A stretch of 32,000 bases of DNA from Candidatus Saccharimonadota bacterium (lineage in GTDB: Bacteria > Patescibacteriota > Gracilibacteria > Absconditabacterales > Absconditicoccaceae), in contig CP006913.1 of NCBI GenBank assembly GCA_000503875.1, forward strand, positions 660,001 through 692,000. Direction: 5' to 3'. The notes under the pieces were generated by a model. It was given only the letters and a program-made list of their open reading frames with translations, made no database searches and had not been told where the DNA came from. Both the position numbers and the translations under genes were made by a program. Positions 1-24,409 of the stretch are shown in pieces; position 1 is the first letter of the stretch; every line of letters starts with the position of its first letter.

Positions 1-1334
1 TTATAGAAAGTGTGGTTGCCAAATTATTCAATAAAGAAACATTGGATAATTTTATGAAAAGTTTTCTCAAAGATGACAGCCAATGGGATGAATGTATTCT
101 TTATATTACTGATTATAAACATTACAAAAAAAACTTCTTTGCTTGAGTACAAAAATATTTAATTACTGCTCTCAAAAAAGAAGGAATAGACCCTTTTGAC
201 GAAGATATTGAAGAATCTGGTTCACGAATTGGTGATGATGAAGAAAGCATAGAAAATCTCAAAATACCAGAAAGAATCAAAAAAGAATCAAAAATTATGG
301 AAAAAATTCTTAATTTTTTTATAACCCTTCTTTGATGATTTTGGATAGCAAGGGGCGAAAGCTTATTCTTAAGATTATATAAACCAAATCTTCTCAAAGA
401 ATTAATTACAACTAATTACGAAAATTTAAAAGAAACCGCTTTGCATACCTATTGATGACTTCTTTATAGCTACGGAAAAAATATATTTTATTACAAATAT
501 ATCTCAGAAAACGTAAGACTTGGAAGACAAAAATTCTATCTTCCTACCAAAAGCACCTCCAAAAACACCTATTCCAATTTTCACATTTTACGTTTAATGG
601 ATGAAAGCGCACTAGCCATTATATTACAAGATATAAACCCCAAAGACATCAAAATATACAACAAAAATAAGCTTTTAATCGAACTTTTTAAAAATCATTT
701 TGGAAAAGAAATATCCAATTTAGTCCAATTAGAAACGACTGATTTTATCAAAACAATATACCAAGATATAGAGCATATTTTCACAAACAAAAACCTGACT
801 ACTATTCTCGAACGTAATTTCAATCAAACTGATCTTTATCATATCAAAGAAAGTTTATATAATATTGATTTTCGAATAAGTAAGGCATATTATCAAGAGA
901 ACAAAAAACAACATGAAAATCAATCACTTTTTGATGGAAATACTTTGTTAGAAATATATGCACAACACAAAGAAACATTATTATGATTTCTTCTCTATCT
1001 AACAAGAATGATACAAAAGCATCCAAATGATAAAGAATTTTTTATTACCCTATACAATAGAAATATTATCCATATTGCTGATCAAGGAATACCAATACGA
1101 AATACTATAATAAGCAATCTTTTCGAAAAATATAAAGACATATTACAAGAAATAATAACCATAGATGATAATTTAGATTTTCTGAGAATAGGTGAAGAAA
1201 ATTTAGAACGATTTACCAAAAAAGTACCAATTCCAGATATTCAAAAACAAATTACTGGAGAAGATTATCTTTGGTTTAAAGGATACCTCAAAAATATCAC
1301 CTACTACAATAAACGCTTTTTTATTCCTAAATAA
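1..1334 (+). CDS. hypothetical protein, C-terminal ~443 aa (5' end outside window)
   Basis: The frame starting at nt 3 is open to TAA 1332-1334 when TGA is read as Gly. The in-frame TGA at 984-986 joins track ORFs 597-986 and 1008-1334, and several TGAs lie upstream. No family recognised. Confidence 0.6.
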
Positions 1335-1774: not shown

Positions 1775-3258
1775 TTCTGAAGTGCCCATTCCAACACCTC
1801 ATCTTCTGGGGTGTCTTTTTTATTAGTGATAATTTTATCGGGAGAAATTCCTATTTCATCAATATTTTTTTTGGATTTTCACATATATCGTTTTGCTACT
1901 GTATATTTAAGCATACTTCCATCATCATATTTCATAAGTTCTTGAACAGATCATTTTCCAAAAGATTTTCCACCTACCAGCAAAGCACCTGTTAAATAAT
2001 CTTTGATAACTCCTGCAAAAATTTCAGAGGCCGAAGCTGATCATTGATTAATCAATACACGAACAGGGATATTTTGGATTTTCGCAGACGGCGAATTCCA
2101 TGCAACAATTTCTTCTGTCATAAATTTAGATTTAATAATAACTGATATCTCTCATGTTGGTACAAAATAATTAAGCATACGAACAACTTCATTTAAGCCT
2201 CATCCTGGATTATTTCTAACATCAAAAATATATTTTGTACATTTTTTAGTAGATAAATCTATCATTGTTTCTTGAAAACTATTAGCAACTCAGAAATCAA
2301 ACATAGCTATATTTACCAAACACACATTTCAATTTTGTTGAGAATATATTTTAGATTCAATATTTGCAATAACAATTTTTGATCTCACAACAGAAAATTC
2401 CAAGATTTTTCCATCTCTGAGAATTTTAAGTTTTACCGTAGTTCATGATGGTCATTTAATCAAAGATGTCGCAGTATTTATAGACATATCTTTATCAACA
2501 AATGTATTGTTAATTTGAACAACCCTATCTCCTCACAACAATCAAATTTTCTCTGCTGGAGATCCTTTAATAGGTGAAATAATAATTAATTCTCCAGGCA
2601 TATTCATTTCTATATAAGCTCCAATACCATAATATTCACCCTGCATTTCTTCATTAAATGTAGTAGCTTCTGTTGGAGGAAAAAAAGAAGTATAAGGATC
2701 ATCTAATCATTCAACCAATCATTTAATTGACCCATACAATAAAGATTTTTGATTAAGTCAGGTATCTGAGACATAATTAGTCAATAATTTTTGATATACA
2801 TCCAGAAATAATGGATTGGACGTAACGTCATTTTCTTCTAGCATAAGTTCTGAAGAGCTATACGTATCAAGCAAAGTTTGAATTTCAAGCAATACTTCTG
2901 TAAACCAATCAACAGTTACTAATGCTTTTTTATCTACAAAAACATCCAAAGAAAAAGAAGGAGCAATAATATTTATAACCTGCTGCTGGGTTATCTGTTT
3001 ATTCAAAGGTAATTCTATATTAGCATTTGGAAATATATCCAAATAAACAGCTTTTTGTAAAATTGGATATAAACTATTTTGCTTAGAAATATTGGGATAT
3101 TTAAGTTCTATATAATTATAACTAGAAGGGATTTTTTGTTTTTGAAGAACAACATTAACATACGTGGTCAAAATTTGTTCAAATGTTAATCCATATTCAG
3201 CAAAAACTGGTGTTACAAAACTTATTATCATCAATACAAACAATCAGATTTTTTTCAT
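1771..3258 (-). CDS. ctp: S41 family C-terminal processing peptidase with signal peptide (495 aa)
   Basis: Starts [20 protein letters not shown]. Carries S41 motifs [21 protein letters not shown], a PDZ-like segment, [20 protein letters not shown] and GISPD. Extends track ORF 2758-3243 across many TGAs. Frame-checked from ATG 3258 to TAG 1773-1771. Confidence 0.85.
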
Positions 3259-3833: not shown

Positions 3834-5411
3834 ATGAAAAAAATCACAGAACAAGAACATATTCAAGATTGACATGGAAAAATGCAAGCATGTACCAATT
3901 TAGAATATACAAAAAATAAAATTCATGAAACAATAGCGCGTGATTTAACGGTTTGTTGTACAGAAAAATCTGATGAACATAAGCCATCAGGATTAGATCT
4001 TTTCAATACAAAAGATTTATCAAGAAATAGCTTCAATTTCATTGTAAGTACTATGGTTCAAAAAATAGAACAAAAAAAATCAAAAATACTATTCAATCGC
4101 GATAAGTCTGAATTTACCAAAGAATGATTTGTTTATATAAATGAAATTCTAAATGAAGCTGTAGAATATTACACGACACATCTTCTTCGTAATATAGGCG
4201 ATAATTTTGTAGAAAACAAGAACAAAAAATGAGGTAAAATACATTTTACCAGCACAGAAGAGGTATGGAAATTTTTTAATTATCCTGCTTTAGACAAAGA
4301 AAATTGATCTCCAGCAAAAAAACAAATATATTGTTCTCTTTTGAAAATAGCCTACGCAATCAACGATATCAAAACCAACGAAGATATGATCAATACCGCT
4401 GAAGAAGAATTTTGAGAAATCAAACAAAATGTATTCTTTTCACAATTTCTTGATTATAAGTGACAAGAAGCATCTGAAAGTATCAAAAACGAAGAAAATA
4501 ATTTTCGTTATATCAAATTACAAACAAAGTGTGAAAAATCTATGAAAAGAAATATTATTTTTAACTGCGCTGGAAGAGTAAAAAGAAAAGAACAAATTCT
4601 CGTAAAAGAAATATCAGATCCAAAATATGATAGCGTAGAAGTAATCAAAGATATTTATGGTATTAGAAATGAAGTTAAAACGAGAGAAGATGCACTTTTT
4701 CTTCTAGAATATATGTGGATTCATATCCTCAAAAGATCAGGAGAAATTTCTTATAAAAATATTTTTGGAAATAATTTAGAAGAAAGCCAACGTTTTGTAA
4801 GGGCACATGCAGGTGAATTAGATCCAGAATTTTATGCAGAAGTCTATAAGTCACTCAAAGAAGATACCACTCCTGGAAAAAATAATAAAGATTACAAAGA
4901 TGTAAAAATACGTGGAGATTTGAGTGGACATTCTTGTGAAATCCAGATTAACCTTGTTGATAATAAAAATGAAACGGGATATTCTCATCACTTAATTTTT
5001 GATTGTAAGAAAAAAATTAGAGCGCTTTCAAGATTACAAGGATATATTTCTGAAATTCTTATTCGTAGATATATCAAAGAAGCTATTGAAAAAAGTATAG
5101 AAGAAGCCAAAAAATATTGATGACATGCTGAATTAGTTGGATTAGGAGGATATCATGGATCCGTAGAAAAAATCACAAAAGAACATATAATGAAAGCTGA
5201 AAACACTATCTTTGATTATCTTTTTGAAGAAGAAAAAGATATTTTGAAATTAGAAATACCAGGAGTTAACGCAAATTTACATAATTATATTTCTCGTAGC
5301 ACGTGGAATCATTTTCATAAATGAGGAAAATATGTGAATTTATTTCCTAAGTGAGCTATGGTAAAAGCAGGAAGTAAAGGCGAAAGAACAAATAAAGAGG
5401 TTAAAGTGTAG
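3834..5411 (+). CDS. RelA/SpoT-like nucleotidyltransferase domain protein (525 aa)
   Basis: Joins track ORFs 3882-4127 and 4542-5120 through in-frame TGAs. The central region carries the ordered motifs AGRVKRKEQILVK, DIYGIRNEV, KDYKDV, EIQI and SHHLIFDCKKK, which resemble RelA_SpoT synthetase-fold motifs (GRVKS, DxxGxR, DYI, EIQIRT, HxxYK). Confidence 0.55.
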
Positions 5412-6642: not shown

Positions 6643-6744
6643 CTCCAATCCAAAACAAATAAAATGTTTCCTTGAAATACCTTGTTGAATATGTACATAT
6701 TCCTGGAAAAATAACAATATAAATTTTAAACGTAAATCAAACCA

Positions 6745-8588: not shown

Positions 8589-8611
8589 ATGTAATAACAA
8601 TTCTCTATAAT

Positions 8612-8638
8612 CAAGCTCGGTAATCCGGGCTTTTTTTA
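8612..8638 (+). terminator. Rho-independent terminator
   Basis: AGCTCGG (8614-8620) / CCGGGCT (8625-8631) plus a T7 run. Near-identical copy at 11602-11630. Confidence 0.75.
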
Positions 8639-8948: not shown

Positions 8949-9742
8949 TTATTGAAAATTATCCTACAAAGAGTATACTAACACTGCTTTATTATTTATT
9001 CTATTATATGGAAAAAGAACCTTCAACATTACAACAAGAAATAAATACATTAATCACAAAAATTGAACAAGAATTTGATTGAGTTACTCTATGAAACGGA
9101 ATAGGAATTACAGAAGCTATTGCAGTAGATGAATGGTTAGATGAAAATGACAAAGAACGCAAGAAATCAAGAGTATCTGACGAAAGAAATGATCGAAAAA
9201 AATATATTTGCAAAAGAGAGCCAGAAGAAAATTCCTTTGATCATTGGCGATGTTTTTCAGATATTGAATGACGAAGATTCCTTTTACCTGCCTATATGAT
9301 ATCAAGATTAAAAAATTTCTATTTTGCAGATGATGGAATTGTTTTAACAAACTTTGAAAATGAGGAATGGATTAATGAAGAGAATCCTCATAATGAAAAA
9401 TTAGATAGCATGATAAAAGAACTAAAAGAGTTATCCAATGTAGACAAATATAAATCAATGAAAAAAGAAGCATACAATGAAATGATAAAAGAAAGTGAAA
9501 AACTCATAAAAGAAATAGAAAAAGAAAGAAATATCGAGATAAAAGATCCAAAAAAAGATTTTGAAAAGTTATTTTCTGCTGTTTTAACACCTGCACAAAA
9601 AAAAACTATTTTAGACTTCTTAAGTCTTCAAATTAAAATAGCAAATACACAAGAAGTAGCATGAGAACAAGTCGAAGAAAAAGAAAATTTTATAAAATTA
9701 ACAGAAAAGAAAATTAAGTTAGTTAAAAATTTTATAGAGTAA
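8933..9742 (+). CDS. hypothetical protein (~269 aa; start uncertain: 8897, 8933 or 9008)
   Basis: Track ORFs 8897-9082 and 9296-9664 share a frame and are joined by TGAs. Ends at TAA 9740-9742. Lys/Glu-rich, coiled-coil-like C-terminal half. Confidence 0.55.
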
Positions 9743-11576: not shown

Positions 11577-11601
11577 TTTAATTCAATTAATTTCAGAAAT
11601 C

Positions 11602-11630
11602 AAGCTCGGTTTATCCGGGCTTTTTTCTTT
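11602..11630 (+). terminator. Rho-independent terminator (copy of the 8612-8638 element)
   Basis: AATCAAGCTCGGT...ATCCGGGCTTTTTT is shared with the 8612 terminator. Confidence 0.75.
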
Positions 11631-11691: not shown

Positions 11692-13503
11692 ATGCTCAAA
11701 GAAGACATCATATACGAATTATATCAGTCCCCTAGTCTTGAAAAGCTCAAAGAACTCAAGAAGAATTTTTCTCAAATCAATAAACTCAAAGACTTAGTAA
11801 GTAATGTCGCGTTGATTCAAACCTACCGTGATCTCCTTGCTACGGGCAAGATTACCGCAAACAAAGAAGTCGAGCAATTACTCAAAAAGAGATCCATCAG
11901 ATCTGAGTCGGGAATTGTTGCGGTGCAGGTACTGACCAAACCTTTCTGGTGTCCAGGAAACTGTATTTTCTGTCCCAACGATCCTGAAATGCCCAAGAGT
12001 TACATCAAGACAGAACCAGGTGCTGCCAGAGCTTTGCTCAACCAATTTGACCCCGTTAAACAAGCGTATAATAGACTCAAATCCTTGAATTTATCAGGAC
12101 ATGATACCGACAAAATAGAAATGATCGTCCTCTGAGGGACGTGGGATGTGTACCCAGAAGACTACAAAATCGAGTTTATCAAAGGACTCTATGATGCCTG
12201 CAATACCTTTGATCAATTGGAAATCGACCACCAAGGACTCGATGAAGTGCAAGAAGATAAGAGATATAAATATACCATCACCAACCAAGACACCATCAAA
12301 TACTCCAAAACCATTGAAGAAGCGATCGAAATCAATGAAACCGCTCCCCATAGAATCATCGGATTGACCATTGAAACCAGACCAGAATATGTAACTGACG
12401 CCAATTGCCAGCTCCGAAGAAAACTCGGAGTAACGAGATTGGAAATAGGGATTCAATCTATGTACGATGACGTTTTGGCAGCCAATAAAAGAGGTCATAC
12501 CGTTGCCCAAATCGAAACTGCCTGCCACAAACTCAGACAGTACGGATTCAAGTTTTGCGTGCATATTATGCCAGGACTGTACAAGTCTAGCCTAGAAAAA
12601 GATATCGGAACCTTCCAACAAATATACGATAATCCTTACATCAAACCTGATGAAATCAAATTCTATCCGACATCAGTAATTCCCAACACCGAACTCTTCA
12701 ATCTCTACAAATCTGGTGAATACAAACCTTTGGAAACCGAAGAAATCGCACATATTATCGAGACAACATTGACGACCATTATCCCTCCGTATACGAGAAT
12801 CAAGAGATTGATCCGCGATATTCCTGCAACCGAAATTGCCGCAGGAAGCAACGTAACCAACCTCAATCAACTCGTCCACACCAAATTACAAAACGAACAA
12901 AATCAGAATATCAAATCACGATATCCATTCTTTCAACGCTTATATGGAGACTTCACACAATACGCTACATTCGACGAATATCTAGCCAGCAAAGACGAAA
13001 AACAAACCAGTATTATCGGCGTTGCCCCTGATCTCACCTCTTCGAGAGAGTATATCTCCTTAGACACGAGAAGCAGAGAAATTAGACATAATACCAATCA
13101 CCACGAAGAAACAGCTAACTTAGTTATTAGAAAATATCTCAGCAGCGTAGGCGCTGAGTACTTTATCAGTTTCGAAGATTCATTAGGATATCTCTATGGA
13201 TTTGCCAGATTATTACTCCCGAAAGAAGGTTCAACGATAGACCGAGAATGATTAGGCGCAAATACTGCACTCATTAGAGAGCTTCACGTCTATGGAAACC
13301 TCCAATCTCTCAAAAAAGCAGCTCAAGAACAAGGTGTACAACATACAGGATTTGGTAAACAACTCATGCACATCGCAGAACAAATCGCTCAATCAAAAAA
13401 ATATATCAAACTCTCAGTCATCTCAGGAGTCGGAGTGAAACAATATTATGAAAAAATTTGATATACCAAAGAAGGCACATATGTTGTGAAAAAATTTAAA
13501 TAA
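11692..13503 (+). CDS. elp3: Elp3-like radical SAM / GNAT acetyltransferase (603 aa)
   Basis: Radical-SAM cluster CPGNCIFCP, GGTW (first G is TGA 12133-12135), ETRPEYV, TRLEIGIQS, RLIRDIP, IRELHVYG and a C-terminal GNAT (QHTGFGKQLM, ISGVGVKQYYEKIGY). Joins track ORFs 11692-12135 and 12148-13251 and continues to TAA 13501-13503. Confidence 0.88.
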
Positions 13504-13506
13504 TAT

Positions 13507-13648
13507 ATAAAGTGAGCATTTACATTTTTAGGTAAAGAAAATACATGGAGCCGGTTTGTTTGTGTTTTCTACCGTTAAGAAAATGTAACAGCTCACGAGG
13601 GGTTTTTGGTTACTTTTTGACCTGGGAGCAAAAAGTAACATAAAAAAA
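13507..13648 (+). repeat. structured intergenic repeat, copy 1 (core 13512-13639)
   Basis: About 97% identical to copy 3 and about 94% to copy 2. Long hairpin GTGAGC.TTTACATTTT / AAAATGTAA..GCTCAC enclosing a second stem, then GAGGGGTTTTTGG, then the 11-bp hairpin GTTACTTTTTG / CAAAAAGTAAC. The transcribed strand is unresolved. Confidence 0.85.
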
Positions 13649-13673
13649 TAAATATAGCAGAACGTAAAATATC

Positions 13674-13706
13674 AAAAAAGATCCACCTCAGTGGACCTTT
13701 TTTTTT
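13674..13706. terminator. bidirectional terminator-like hairpin
   Basis: TCCAC / GTGGA stem flanked by A6 upstream and T9 downstream, just 3' of the minus-strand gene stop at 13712. Confidence 0.55.
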
Positions 13707-19428: not shown

Positions 19429-19455
19429 GAAGATGCTCCAGGGCATCTTTTTTTA
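19429..19455 (+). terminator. Rho-independent terminator
   Basis: AGATGC (19431-19436) / GCATCT (19443-19448) plus T7. Confidence 0.75.
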
Positions 19456-19514: not shown

Positions 19515-19660
19515 ATAAAAAAGGTGAGCGTTTACATTTTTAGGTAAGAAAATACATGGAGTCGAATTTGTTTGTGTTTTCTACCGTTAAGAAAATGTAA
19601 CAGCTCACGAGGGGTTTTTTGGTTACTTTTTGACCTGGGAGCAAAAAGTAACATAAAAAA
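19515..19660 (+). repeat. structured intergenic repeat, copy 2 (core 19524-19652)
   Basis: Same architecture as copy 1. Flanked on both sides by ATAAAAAA (19515-19522 and 19653-19660). The apical loop differs (GTCGAAT versus GCCGGT) while the stems are conserved. Confidence 0.85.
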
Positions 19661-19777
19661 TATCCCAGCGGAACGAAAAAAATATATTTAATGCATATTT
19701 TTTATACTTGCAAAAAAGCAATCATTTCACTACCATATACCCAACACCCAACATTTATCACCCAACACAATTAAACA

Positions 19778-23117: not shown

Positions 23118-23732
23118 ATGATAACACTACCACAACTTCCTTTTGCAAATACTGCTCTAGCTCCAATTATAGAGAGCAAAACAATTGACCTCCACTACGG
23201 AAAACATCATCAAGGATACGTAAATAAACTCAATGAATTGATCAAATGAACTCCTTTCGAAAACTCGGATTTGGAAACAATTATCGCAAGCGTTGACGCT
23301 TGACCAATATTCAACAATGCCGCCCAAATCCGAAACCACACTTTCTATCGAAATTCTCTTCGCTCTGCTTTAGAAAACAATTTACCTAGCGATGACTTCT
23401 TGCGAGCCATAGAACAAAAACGAGGATCTTTTGATGCGTTTAAACAAGAATTTATCACCAAAGCCACCAATAACTTTTGATCAGGTCGAACCTGGCTCGC
23501 AAAAACACCACATAATGAATTAGAAATTATCAATACCTCAAATGCTGGAACCCCTCTCAGACAAGAAACAGTAATTTGAAATAAAGATTGAATAGCATAT
23601 ATTCCCCTCTTTACTATTGATGTTTGGGAACATGCTTATTATCTAGACTATCAAAACCGCAGACCAGATTATCTCACCAACATTCGATCCCTCATCAACT
23701 GGAGTTTCGCAGAAAATAATTTTAGTAAATAA
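23118..23732 (+). CDS. sodB: Fe-type superoxide dismutase (204 aa)
   Basis: [17 protein letters not shown]-x-NHTFY-x-NSL, FGSG-x-[21 protein letters not shown] and NI-x-SLINW, where x is CGA at positions that are Trp in E. coli SodB. Several TGA Gly codons. Confidence 0.92.
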
Positions 23733-23834: not shown

Positions 23835-24043
23835 ATAAAAAAGTGAGCGTTTACATTTTTAGGTAAAGAAAATACATGGAGCCGGTTTGTTTGTGTTTTT
23901 TACCGTTAAGAAAATGTAACAGCTCACGAGGGGTTTTTGGTTACTTCGAACACTCAAAGAATCTGTACCTTATTGCTTTGAGATGAGAGAAGGATACTTA
24001 TTAGTGTACTTTTTGACCCGGCAGCAAAAAGTAACATAAAAAA
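23835..24043 (+). repeat. structured intergenic repeat, copy 3 (core 23843-24035) with a nested 60-nt insertion at 23947-24006
   Basis: Same element, flanked by ATAAAAAA (23835-23842 and 24036-24043). The 5' arm of the second hairpin is interrupted by 60 nt bracketed by a duplicated TACTT (23942-23946 and 24007-24011). Confidence 0.85.
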
Positions 24044-24070
24044 AATATATTATATATAAACAGTACACCA

Positions 24071-24409
24071 ATGAATAAAAGAAAACGTTGATATCAAGCC
24101 GAAAATATAGCAAAACAATACTTTATTAAACAATGATACAAAATACTACATCAGAATTATACTATTCGTTGATGAGAATTAGATATTATAGCAGAAAAAG
24201 GAAACAATCGCATCTTTATAGAAGTCAAAGAAGTAGAGCAAACCAACGACCTTCACAATTACATTTCACCAAGAAAACTTCAAACAATATACAAAACAAT
24301 TCAATTCTTCAATCATGAATACACAACAGACAAGCAACTTCGCATTGACCTTGTTTTCATAAAAGAAAACAATATACTTTATCACTACGAAAATATTAGC
24401 AATAACTAA
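24071..24409 (+). CDS. yraN: YraN-family (UPF0102) endonuclease-like protein (112 aa)
   Basis: GYQAENIAKQYFIKQGYKILHQNYTIRGGELDIIAE....IFIEVK matches the G..E..A...L...G......N.....GE.D.I...FVEVK pattern. Four TGA Gly codons. Track ORF 24133-24318 is out of frame. Confidence 0.8.

Follow-up and report, generated by a model that had tools for sequence, protein, structure and literature searches.

A dispersed intergenic repeat of Absconditabacteria that combines a variable hairpin with a conserved pseudoknot of probable triple-helix type

What is the element of about 130 nt that stands three times between unrelated genes of a Candidatus Saccharimonadota bacterium of the Absconditabacterales, and does it act as RNA or as DNA? 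We studied it in the 32,000-nt stretch at positions 660,001 to 692,000 of contig CP006913.1 (assembly GCA_000503875.1, forward strand), which is called the window here and numbered from its first letter. Comparison with related copies elsewhere shows, as far as sequence can tell, a real, selected and strand-specific fold, made of a variable hairpin (P1) and a conserved pseudoknot around a second, smaller hairpin (P2), which is widespread and uncatalogued; from this fold we infer a triple helix, the RNA nature of the folded molecule and its function.

Sequence reading and pattern searches identified exactly three copies of the element in the window, all on the + strand and all intergenic when TGA is read as a sense codon. 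The position of TGA codons in glycine-rich motifs, e.g., GPGGVGKS, together with the gain in open reading frame (ORF) coverage, which grows from 15.5 to 39.7 kb once TGA no longer counts as a stop, indicates that the host uses code 25 (UGA = glycine). The copies begin with GTGAGCRYTTACA... and end in ...AAAAAGTAACAT, and the 24-nt and 21-nt end patterns gave three matches each against 0.00 expected from 100 shuffles; an nhmmer search with the core profile added no other copy, intact or degenerate, within the window. Folding the + strand of copy 1 yields both P1 and P2 at -41 kcal/mol, a value (z = -4.6) that none of 200 shuffles equalled, so that the three-copy structured intergenic repeat with uniform orientation, described in the initial annotation of this DNA, was confirmed by pattern searches and fold alike. 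The copies and their parts are as follows.

13512-13648, + strand: copy 1, whole element (P1, pseudoknot core and A-run), 13512-13641 followed by the A-run to 13648
13512-13596, + strand: P1 of copy 1, an 85-nt hairpin with outer stem GTGAGC/GCUCAC; next inward, the middle stem UUACAUUUU(U)/(G)AAAAUGUAA and GGUA/UACC; then the inner stem GAAAAUACA/UGUGUUUUC, closed by an apical loop that varies and measures about 15 nt
13597-13608, + strand: GAGGGG + U5 + G of copy 1, with GGG at 13600-13602 as the proposed pseudoknot strand S1a
13603-13607, + strand: U5 of copy 1, proposed third strand of the triple helix
13609-13639, + strand: P2 of copy 1, the 11-bp hairpin GUUACUUUUUG / CAAAAAGUAAC
13620-13628, + strand: P2 loop of copy 1, ACCUGGGAG, with CCU at 13621-13623 as the proposed strand S1b
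19524-19660, + strand: copy 2, whole element, 19524-19654 followed by the A-run to 19660
19524-19608, 19609-19621 and 19622-19652, + strand: P1, GAGGGG + U6 + G, and P2 of copy 2
19661-19682 (end approximate), + strand: tail of copy 2, TATCCCAGCGGAACGAAAAAAA, semi-conserved, a degenerate counterpart of the P3 hairpin described below
23843-24045, + strand: copy 3, whole element, 23843-24037 followed by the A-run to 24045
23843-23927, 23928-23938 and 23939-24035, + strand: P1, GAGGGG + U5, and the interrupted P2 of copy 3
23947-24011, + strand: 65-nt insertion in the P2 5' arm of copy 3 (GGUUACUU^UUUG), with TACTT on either side and a hairpin of its own, CUCAAAG...CUUUGAG
13674-13703, bidirectional: canonical intrinsic terminator between convergent genes

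Copy 3 is longer only because of the 65-nt insertion, which is missing from the orthologous copies (loci outside the window are cited by L numbers, here L002 and L017); being unique within the window and the loci, it was rejected as a second repeat family. A near-identical counterpart of window positions 6642-27107, with a single-indel difference in length, exists in contig DPJE01000003.1 of assembly GCA_003543185.1. Two other assemblies of the same organism end inside element copies (L172 at its end, L173 at both ends; window positions 13618 and about 19546-19650), indicating that the repeat breaks short-read assemblies.

P1 has a lineage-specific sequence in which pairing is, on comparative evidence, well supported as being kept by compensatory changes. 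Across 15 Absconditabacteria-type copies, 99.4% of cells hold standard pairs on the + strand, compared with 45-55% in slid-strand controls, and RNAalifold returned the same P1 and P2 helices from these copies. Three P1 pairs show double-sided changes. Two adjacent middle-stem pairs are changed on both sides in L010, where TTTACA/TGTAA has become TTTGAA/TTCAA (A-U to G-C and C-G to A-U), the second L010 copy carries TTTATA/TATAA, and the inner stem passes through the series C-G, U·G (window) and U-A. Similarly, the three copies of the Gracilibacteria-like L011 pair TGC/GCA, TGT/ACA and CAT/ATG at equal stem positions. Between genera P1 is wholly different, yet its closing helix always ends right before the core, and in L017, L018, L013 and L011 it is swapped for unrelated hairpins with the P2 module unchanged. 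The 5' half and apical loop of P1 are the most variable parts of the element; its 3' half and the core are near-invariant. Variants of P1, loop variants included, cluster by genome and not by locus, indicating gene conversion (or drift, in the case of loop variants). Energy-minimum folds of the longer Gracilibacteria versions have weak z-scores and ambiguous structures.

Both hairpins of the initial annotation are thus real and evolutionarily maintained, as judged from RNAalifold and the compensatory changes. Its suggestion that they are two inverted pairs of one motif, and possibly protein-binding sites, had to be dropped, because the arm word is shared only in this genus and the P1 arms change by compensation or are replaced. 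Of the conflicting strand evidence that it had listed, the part in favour of the plus strand stood: G-U wobbles fit the + strand in the window and in many lineages, and U·G intermediates lie between compensatory states, which makes the plus strand the folding strand. The proposed minus-strand terminator with its U-run, in contrast, was not supported, since the U-run follows the big hairpin only at copy 2.

What had been regarded as a mere linker forms, together with the P2 loop, the most conserved part of the element, a pseudoknot with a probable triple helix, in a module that also occurs far beyond this genome. The conserved unit comprises linker and small hairpin, CGAGGGG-UUUUU-GG-UUACUUUUUG-ACCYGGNAG-CAAAAAGUAAC. 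In 20 cores drawn from about 12 lineages P2 pairs essentially throughout, apart from a single mismatch in two cores, and it covaries: GGUUAC/GUAAC is exchanged for GCCUAC/GUAGG in L011a/b, with L011c as a U·G/U·G hybrid of both states, and the top G-C pair is replaced by U-A in L011b, L056 and L079. Wobbles in P2 occur on the sense strand only. Moreover, the P2 loop is matched by a complementary stretch of 3-7 nt immediately 5' of the U-run, with eleven different sequence pairs of the putative pseudoknot stem S1 (GGG/CCY, GGGG/CCCC, GCG/CGC, GCGCG/CGCGC, AAGCG/CGUUU, AGGAC/GUCCU, CUUGAU/AUCAAG, GCGGCA/UGCUGC, UGUGGC/GCUACA, GUCGC/GCGAC and UGGC(C)/(G)GCCA). Summed over lineages, anchored linker-loop complementarity amounts to 57, against 37.9±3.9 after linkers and loops were shuffled among lineages, and 0 of 100,000 such permutations reach 57; a smaller permutation test with seven lineages gave 32/5040. 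In L020 the unit occurs twice, as a long inverted duplication, and S1 reads GGGG/CCCC in one arm of this palindrome and GCG/CGC in the other. Linker-loop covariation, as expected of an H-type pseudoknot, was thus found, and there is good support for a core whose bases ahead of the U5-6 run, GGG in the window, pair with the first bases of the P2 loop (CCY).

The order of strands (S1-5', pyrimidine tract, GG, P2-5', S1-3', P2-3') would bring the pyrimidine tract into the P2 major groove and align it parallel to the purine strand, as U·A-U triples require. Here the plus-strand U-run probably occupies the major groove along the U5/A5 portion of P2, forming such triples, and a geometry with five triples and one or two G residues spanning the remaining 5-6 bp of the deep groove would be compatible with an 11-bp P2. 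The length of the U-run (loop 1) tracks that of the purine tract, with U4:A4 in L024b, U5:A5, and U6-7:A6-7 in L024a, L035, L056 and L079 (Spearman 0.79, in lineages that are not phylogenetically independent). Furthermore, P2 is extended to CUUUUUCUUG/CAAGAAAAAG in L113, L115 and L170, and their loop 1, the pyrimidine tract CUUCUUUUU, is the mirror image of the P2 5' arm CUUUUUCUUG: 8/8 positions are Hoogsteen-compatible (U·A or C+·G) parallel to AAGAAAAA, and the antiparallel Watson-Crick register of CUUCUUUUU contains one mismatch and one G·U wobble per nine positions. A loop-1 pyrimidine tract that mirrors the pyrimidine strand, the hallmark of a major-groove triple helix, is therefore seen in few independent events, from which we infer the physical triplex.

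Downstream of P2, most lineages that are not of the Absconditabacteria type have a short G+C-rich hairpin, P3, with the sequence (U)CGCC-AGC-GGGCG-AAA or CCGCC-GUAAG-GGCGG, and the tail AUCCCAGCGGAGCGAAAAA after some Absconditabacteria copies, copy 2 included, looks like a degenerate P3. A tail like that of copy 2 follows about six Absconditabacteria-type copies and is weak in copy 1 (13656-13670). Extra hairpins are tolerated in P2 at GGUUACUU^UUUG, namely the 65-nt hairpin of copy 3 and a different one of 20 nt, CTTGCCTACCGGCAGGCAGG, in L016 and L019; the second L010 copy has a 41-nt insertion 3' of the U-run. By analogy, the tolerated P2 hairpins resemble expansion segments of structured RNAs.

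The module is distributed across distant bacteria. A 21-mer scan of the genome collection added eight copies in three metagenome-assembled genomes, JAQUVI01 (Absconditabacteria, five copies), CAZUIS01 and CAZZEA01, and a metagenome scan restricted to the linker and the start of P2 uncovered more Absconditabacteria-type copies as well as the module behind unrelated upstream hairpins. Contigs from other UGA-recoded, Gracilibacteria-like organisms carry it (L011, L013/L015, L018/L022), as does a contig of 63-64% G+C (L009/L020). In L011 (11.8 kb), three co-oriented minus-strand copies lie within about 9 kb (90-130, 6671-6711 and 9305-9335), a clustering as in the window. Among Proteobacteria, single copies were found on plasmids of Diaphorobacter (L023) and Pseudomonas antarctica (L024) in plasmid collections, and the motif is present on the phage-labelled contigs L026, L035/L056, L079, L113, L115 and L170; E. 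coli genomes have no homologue. Several apparent links were dismissed. The 23-nt BLAST match to the Bacteroides plasmid pBI143 lies in the replication-gene region without a hairpin and is due to chance, only L035 and L113 carry the motif among 23 matches to the phage-end repeat pattern TTATCTCA, the others being chance matches, and most of the 120 matches of TTTTTGGTTACTTTTT in viral contigs are chance as well, with the hairpin in only eight, of which L041 and L132 are chance or degenerate. Two side observations concern these contigs: tandem sub-repeats CGCGGGCAAGGYGCATAG follow P2 in L011, and L013 has at 120-200 (minus strand), beside a tRNA-Arg(CCG), a tRNA-like sequence (GGGTCGTAGTTTAATGGTAGAAT...) that neither ARAGORN nor Rfam calls and that may be an interrupted or degenerate tRNA.

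Next to this wide distribution stands a stable position within related genomes. The locus between the superoxide dismutase (SOD) gene and yraN (SOD|YraN) is filled in four of the four genomes sampled, that between an RsmE-like gene and a Mur ligase gene in three, and that upstream of a phosphoribosyltransferase (PRTase) gene in two. Further copies of the 128-nt core in relatives, as envisaged in the initial annotation, were searched for and found, and the P2 module also in unrelated P1 contexts; its comparison of empty with filled sites returned only filled sites at these loci in the four, three and two genomes sampled, and no parent element was seen in a scan that did not extend to whole genomes. 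At SOD|YraN, which L017 retains with a different P1, the flanking coding sequences are 74-86% identical and their third positions 73-75%. The 44-nt core differs there at two loop positions only, even where P1 is replaced (L017), and P1 itself is about 90% identical or replaced. That the core is conserved more strongly than coding sequence, and hence under selection, is well supported by these alignments.

The element also has a preferred orientation. Among the copies from the Candidate Phyla Radiation (CPR; Absconditabacteria and Gracilibacteria) with both neighbours called, 0 of 21 are antisense to both, and in tandem gene pairs all copies run in sense (11/11, from 6/6 distinct loci); five further loci are convergent and four divergent. 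The distance to the start codon of the downstream gene ranges from 26 to 230 nt. The neighbours are unrelated housekeeping genes, confirmed by Pfam for radical SAM, SOD, UPF0102, Mur ligase, ribosome recycling factor, UvrB, PRTase and CorA, and named only by eye from the translations for GltX, LigA, RsmE-like and RlmH-like proteins. In the window, copy 1 starts 8 nt past the stop codon of a radical-SAM gene (11692-13503) and has the terminator 13674-13703 downstream, which shows that the genome employs ordinary terminators and that copy 1 lies inside the 3' untranslated region (UTR) of the upstream gene. Copy 2 lies 3' of the terminator of its upstream gene (about 19430-19455) and 126 nt ahead of a metallophosphoesterase gene (19778), and copy 3 has the Fe/Mn superoxide dismutase gene (23118-23732) on one side and the UPF0102/YraN gene (24071-24409) on the other. 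As a separate observation, two near-identical terminator-like hairpins of the form AATCAAGCTCGGT(A/TT)ATCCGGGCTTTTTT stand 3 kb apart behind different genes (8609-8637 and 11598-11626). L008 holds a 5'-truncated copy; at about 4245-4330 (minus strand), where the left half of its P1 is missing, this copy abuts a tandem array of units of about 13 nt (TAGAACTTAGAGC...).

We compared the element with the known classes of RNAs, repeats and signals. Rfam 15 gave no match at gathering score in the whole window and only a tRNA on 12 loci; with E-value thresholds there were sub-threshold chance matches only, among which SAM-II, SAM-V and preQ1-II do not appear even at E<=10. Nothing relevant came from the literature, whether searched by sequence strings or by concept. 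The initial annotation, which recognised no known RNA family, is borne out by the absence of an Rfam match. Its notion of a recently mobile miniature element did not survive: as a miniature inverted-repeat transposable element (MITE) the element was rejected, because its inverted repeats are internal (P1 and P2 separately) with none at the ends, the upstream flanks of 16 copies share only A-richness instead of a target-site duplication, and copies sit at shared loci in 3-4 species. The supposed target-site duplication or A-tract preference dissolves likewise, as the 3' ACAT(A/T)A(A/G)AAA belongs to the element and the ATAAAAAA upstream of copies 2 and 3 is missing at the copy 3 orthologue L002 (...CACAAAGCAG|GTGAGC) and most others. 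A palindrome derived from IS200/IS605 was rejected because the left flanks are unrelated and lack a conserved target tetranucleotide, and because the similarity between P1 and P2 is limited to one genus and lost via compensatory change. Repetitive extragenic palindromic (REP) sequences and REPINs, which are palindromes of 20-40 nt with a conserved 5' GTAG, differ in size and sequence. For integron attC sites, the candidate words GTTACTT and TGTAAC violate the core-site consensus RYYYAAC ... GTTRRRY, the copies are spaced 6.0 and 4.3 kb apart over 4-5 conserved genes, and the window has no integrase. Furthermore, the elements are not intrinsic terminators, as the scan flags separate hairpins (13674-13703 and 19430-19449) and the U-run precedes P2, 7 nt past P1. 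A sigma-70 promoter scan found no site inside them, and a TTGACC-N17/18-TAAAAA seen by eye is lost in the Gracilibacteria copies. A small protein gene was discarded since the 32-codon ATG frame of copy 1 is shifted in copy 2 and the ATG is absent in the JAQUVI01 copies, template and variable repeats of a diversity-generating retroelement since the copies are non-coding, conserved across species and differ in ways that are not adenine-specific, and tRNA or tmRNA since ARAGORN calls nothing at the elements.

Mobile elements are bracketed by the motif at some loci. On the Pseudomonas antarctica plasmid (L024), outward-facing copies at 3017-3060 (-) and 4656-4705 (+) lie around an IS110-type ORF (start 3258), and a Mu-like prophage on IMGVR_UViG_3300037470_000544 is bracketed by the inverted copies L035 and L056, of which L056 lies beside Dam and tail-fibre genes and L035 after terminase, portal and gpF; the positions of the bracketing copies in this contig were deduced from locus lengths. 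L113 presents the same phage type, followed by the motif and then by the host hemB. The IS110-type transposase ORF of L024 (MDYDSAFVGIDVS...) is apparently a pseudogene, and a classic Pseudomonas REP is also present between both motif copies. In L056, an insertion of about 500 nt with long terminal inverted repeats (CGCTGCCGGGTCGTTTTGACTCGCATCC...) lies at about 4440-5010 between phage-end-like repeats and the motif, and a fragment of it also splits the P3 hairpin of that copy.

How, then, would such an element act? The reading that we favour, and put forward as a tentative one, is a co-transcribed, cis-acting RNA module, resistant to nucleases, that would mark or protect transcript ends in the manner of REP stability elements or of the element for nuclear expression (ENE). 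Neighbouring mRNAs would carry it in a 3' UTR, a 5' leader or the space between two cistrons, and in every case in sense where both neighbours run alike. Its likeness to the REP stabilisers of enterobacteria would be one of function, and that to ENE/MALAT1 triple helices one of structure. The stable hairpin and the triple-helix knot could then serve in cis as nuclease-resistant punctuation, with the knot defining and protecting RNA ends and uncoupling the stability of adjacent genes. The copies are old and vertically inherited at fixed loci, are kept alike by selection and, it appears, gene conversion, and bear no mark of recent transposition. We favour this RNA model on account of the sense bias at tandem loci, the position of copy 1 in a 3' UTR, the RNA-style wobble intermediates, the insertions like those of expansion segments, the conservation above that of coding sequence, and the analogy to REP stabilisers and ENE triple helices.

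Several observations weigh against it. A good intrinsic terminator separates the upstream gene from the element at copy 2 and in L004, so that simple stabilisation of a 3' UTR cannot be the role of these copies, and the four divergent loci offer no upstream mRNA to protect. Among the proteobacterial copies at least L023 runs antisense to both of its neighbours, as does the degenerate L100. S1 comprises only 3 bp in the copies of the window itself, the triple-helix covariation at the level of composition comes from one subfamily, and the length correlation is not phylogenetically independent. The bracketing of two mobile elements by inverted copies is a pattern typical of REP-like DNA targets. 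The molecule is presumed to be RNA, and every structural argument would fit a folded single-stranded DNA equally well.

This last point leads to the main rival, a REP-like DNA element that would fold in single-stranded DNA, i.e., the lagging-strand template or a transposition intermediate, and be recognised by a strand-specific HUH transposase, akin to the REP-associated tyrosine transposase (RAYT), or by a recombinase, with the copies as its relics or substrates and as landing sites for other mobile elements. Its support comes from the bracketed IS110-type ORF and prophage and from copies that are antisense or, in one case, truncated; we consider it unlikely. Such an element would account for a multi-copy extragenic palindrome at which assemblies break (L172, L173), for the 5' truncation of L008, for the repeated entry of foreign sequence at one P2 position, and for inverted copies around the IS110-type ORF and the Mu-like prophage, and it accommodates both the long inverted duplication of L020 and the antisense placement of L023; co-orientation with genes could equally mirror the direction of replication. 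However, terminal inverted repeats, a target-site duplication and a conserved flanking tetranucleotide are all missing, no transposase adjoins any CPR copy, and the orthologous loci are fixed in 3-4 species with no empty site seen and a core conserved above coding level. Wobbles of the G·U/G·T kind, like evolutionary intermediates with U·G, are seen more typically in RNA. A signal in double-stranded DNA, either an outward promoter that P2 would contain (TTGACC-N17/18-TAAAAA) or the operator of a dimeric regulator bound to the 11-bp inverted arms, appears very improbable. P2 is a perfect palindrome with a 9-bp spacer, and by eye TTGACC in its arm and loop is followed in Absconditabacteria copies by an A/T-rich -10-like sequence at the right spacing, but the consensus promoter scan is empty in the elements and Gracilibacteria copies are GC-rich where the -10 box would lie (GTAACACCCCG, GTAACGCTCCG). 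Moreover, linker-loop covariation, compensatory arm changes and one-strand wobbles make no sense for duplex recognition, and at five convergent loci there is nothing downstream to drive.

Two alternatives remain on the RNA side. Independently expressed small RNAs, in which the constant pseudoknot or triple helix would be a stabilising or protein-binding 3' scaffold and P1, especially its hypervariable loop, would carry copy-specific information such as target pairing, are quite improbable in our view. A constant 3' module with a variable 5' domain whose apical loop varies most agrees with this idea, A/T-rich -10-like hexamers often stand, by eye, just upstream of GTGAGC, and copy 2 and L004, being behind a terminator, would need a promoter of their own. 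Yet the flanks are unrelated and share no conserved upstream promoter, the promoter scan detects none in or at the elements, no terminator follows P2, and loop variants sort by genome and not by locus, suggesting drift or gene conversion rather than the tracking of targets. Finally, a ligand- or ion-sensing pseudoknot with a fold of the SAM-II or preQ1-II riboswitch type, controlling the downstream gene, is hardly credible. Its H-type topology would be the same, loop 1 being U-rich and lodged in the major groove of an A-U helix, a likeness which we take from general knowledge of those structures, but the Rfam models of these classes are unmatched even at E<=10, the downstream genes are functionally unrelated and convergent at five loci, and the purine strand contains neither a Shine-Dalgarno sequence nor a terminator, with start codons at a distance of 26-230 nt.

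Taken further, the RNA model would describe a fold shared across bacterial phyla and so far undescribed, a pseudoknot anchored by a hairpin and held shut by a U·A-U/C+·G-C triple helix, which would be a prokaryotic counterpart of ENE/MALAT1. Dispersed repeats would carry it as a module through Patescibacteria (Absconditabacteria and Gracilibacteria) and Proteobacteria as well as their phages, and it may have passed between a host and its episymbiont or predator; in this full extent we hold the proposal to be doubtful. Triple-helix elements that protect RNA ends are known from eukaryotic long non-coding RNAs (lncRNAs), some viruses and transposons, and to our knowledge no bacterial ENE or triple-helix end-protection element has been described. 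If the core is an end-protection element, it would constitute a new structural class in bacterial post-transcriptional control and would explain why, in tiny streamlined CPR genomes, a 130-nt repeat is preserved at fixed loci with greater fidelity than the protein-coding sequence. Should it instead be a recombination substrate in single-stranded DNA, it would be an unusually elaborate REP-like site, common to bacteria that are only very distantly related, on which IS110 elements and a Mu-like phage land. Either way, the compact motif of about 45 nt with its clear covariation is suited to a covariance model, a wide search and biochemistry.

Among known systems, the integron attC sites, e.g., the repeats of Vibrio cholerae (VCRs), resemble the element as co-oriented imperfect-dyad repeats of about 125 nt downstream of genes and as folded single strands of conserved structure and variable sequence; the element, however, lacks R''/R' core sites and intI, is spaced at 4-6 kb over housekeeping genes rather than single cassettes, and has a pseudoknot without attC counterpart. 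The MITE-like bacterial repeats Correia/NEMIS, ERIC/IRU, RUP, BOX and the Rickettsia RPE are likewise intergenic, co-transcribed repeats of 100-200 nt with long hairpins and can alter mRNA processing or stability, whereas all these repeats possess terminal inverted repeats, usually target-site duplications and presence/absence polymorphism, all of which are missing from an element that is fixed at syntenic sites. With SAM-II, SAM-V, preQ1-II and the telomerase RNA pseudoknot it has in common the order S1 5', U-rich loop 1, S2 5', S1 3', loop 3 and A-rich S2 3', with loop 1 parallel to the purine strand, but not a sequence or covariance-model match, a regulon, a sequestered Shine-Dalgarno sequence or a template, and it is multi-copy and embedded in a repeat.

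Parallels can also be drawn to REP elements and to ENEs. REPs are known barriers to 3'-5' exonucleases. REP sequences and bacterial interspersed mosaic elements (BIMEs) of enterobacteria and pseudomonads are, like the element, multi-copy, strictly extragenic, hairpin-forming, co-transcribable, homogenised within genomes and targets of the IS110 family (here L024). REPs are, however, simple and species-specific palindromes of 20-40 nt with a 5' GTAG, whereas the element measures 130-250 nt, keeps its pseudoknot/triplex core across phyla, has no RAYT gene in sight and occurs at low copy number (at least 3-5 per genome of about 1 Mb). Elements of the ENE/MALAT1 type, found in eukaryotic lncRNAs, the herpesvirus PAN RNA and plant and fungal transposon RNAs, share with it two U-rich strands that clamp an A-rich strand in U·A-U (and C+·G-C) triples and a proposed protection of RNA ends, and the A-rich run 3' of the structure in Absconditabacteria copies adds to this likeness. 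In an ENE, the U-rich internal loop of a stem takes hold of an A-tract lying downstream, whereas here the triplex, deduced from covariation, would form in an H-type pseudoknot with loop 1 as the third strand. The element is best filed as a new variety of structured extragenic repeat with an uncatalogued pseudoknot core of triple-helix type.

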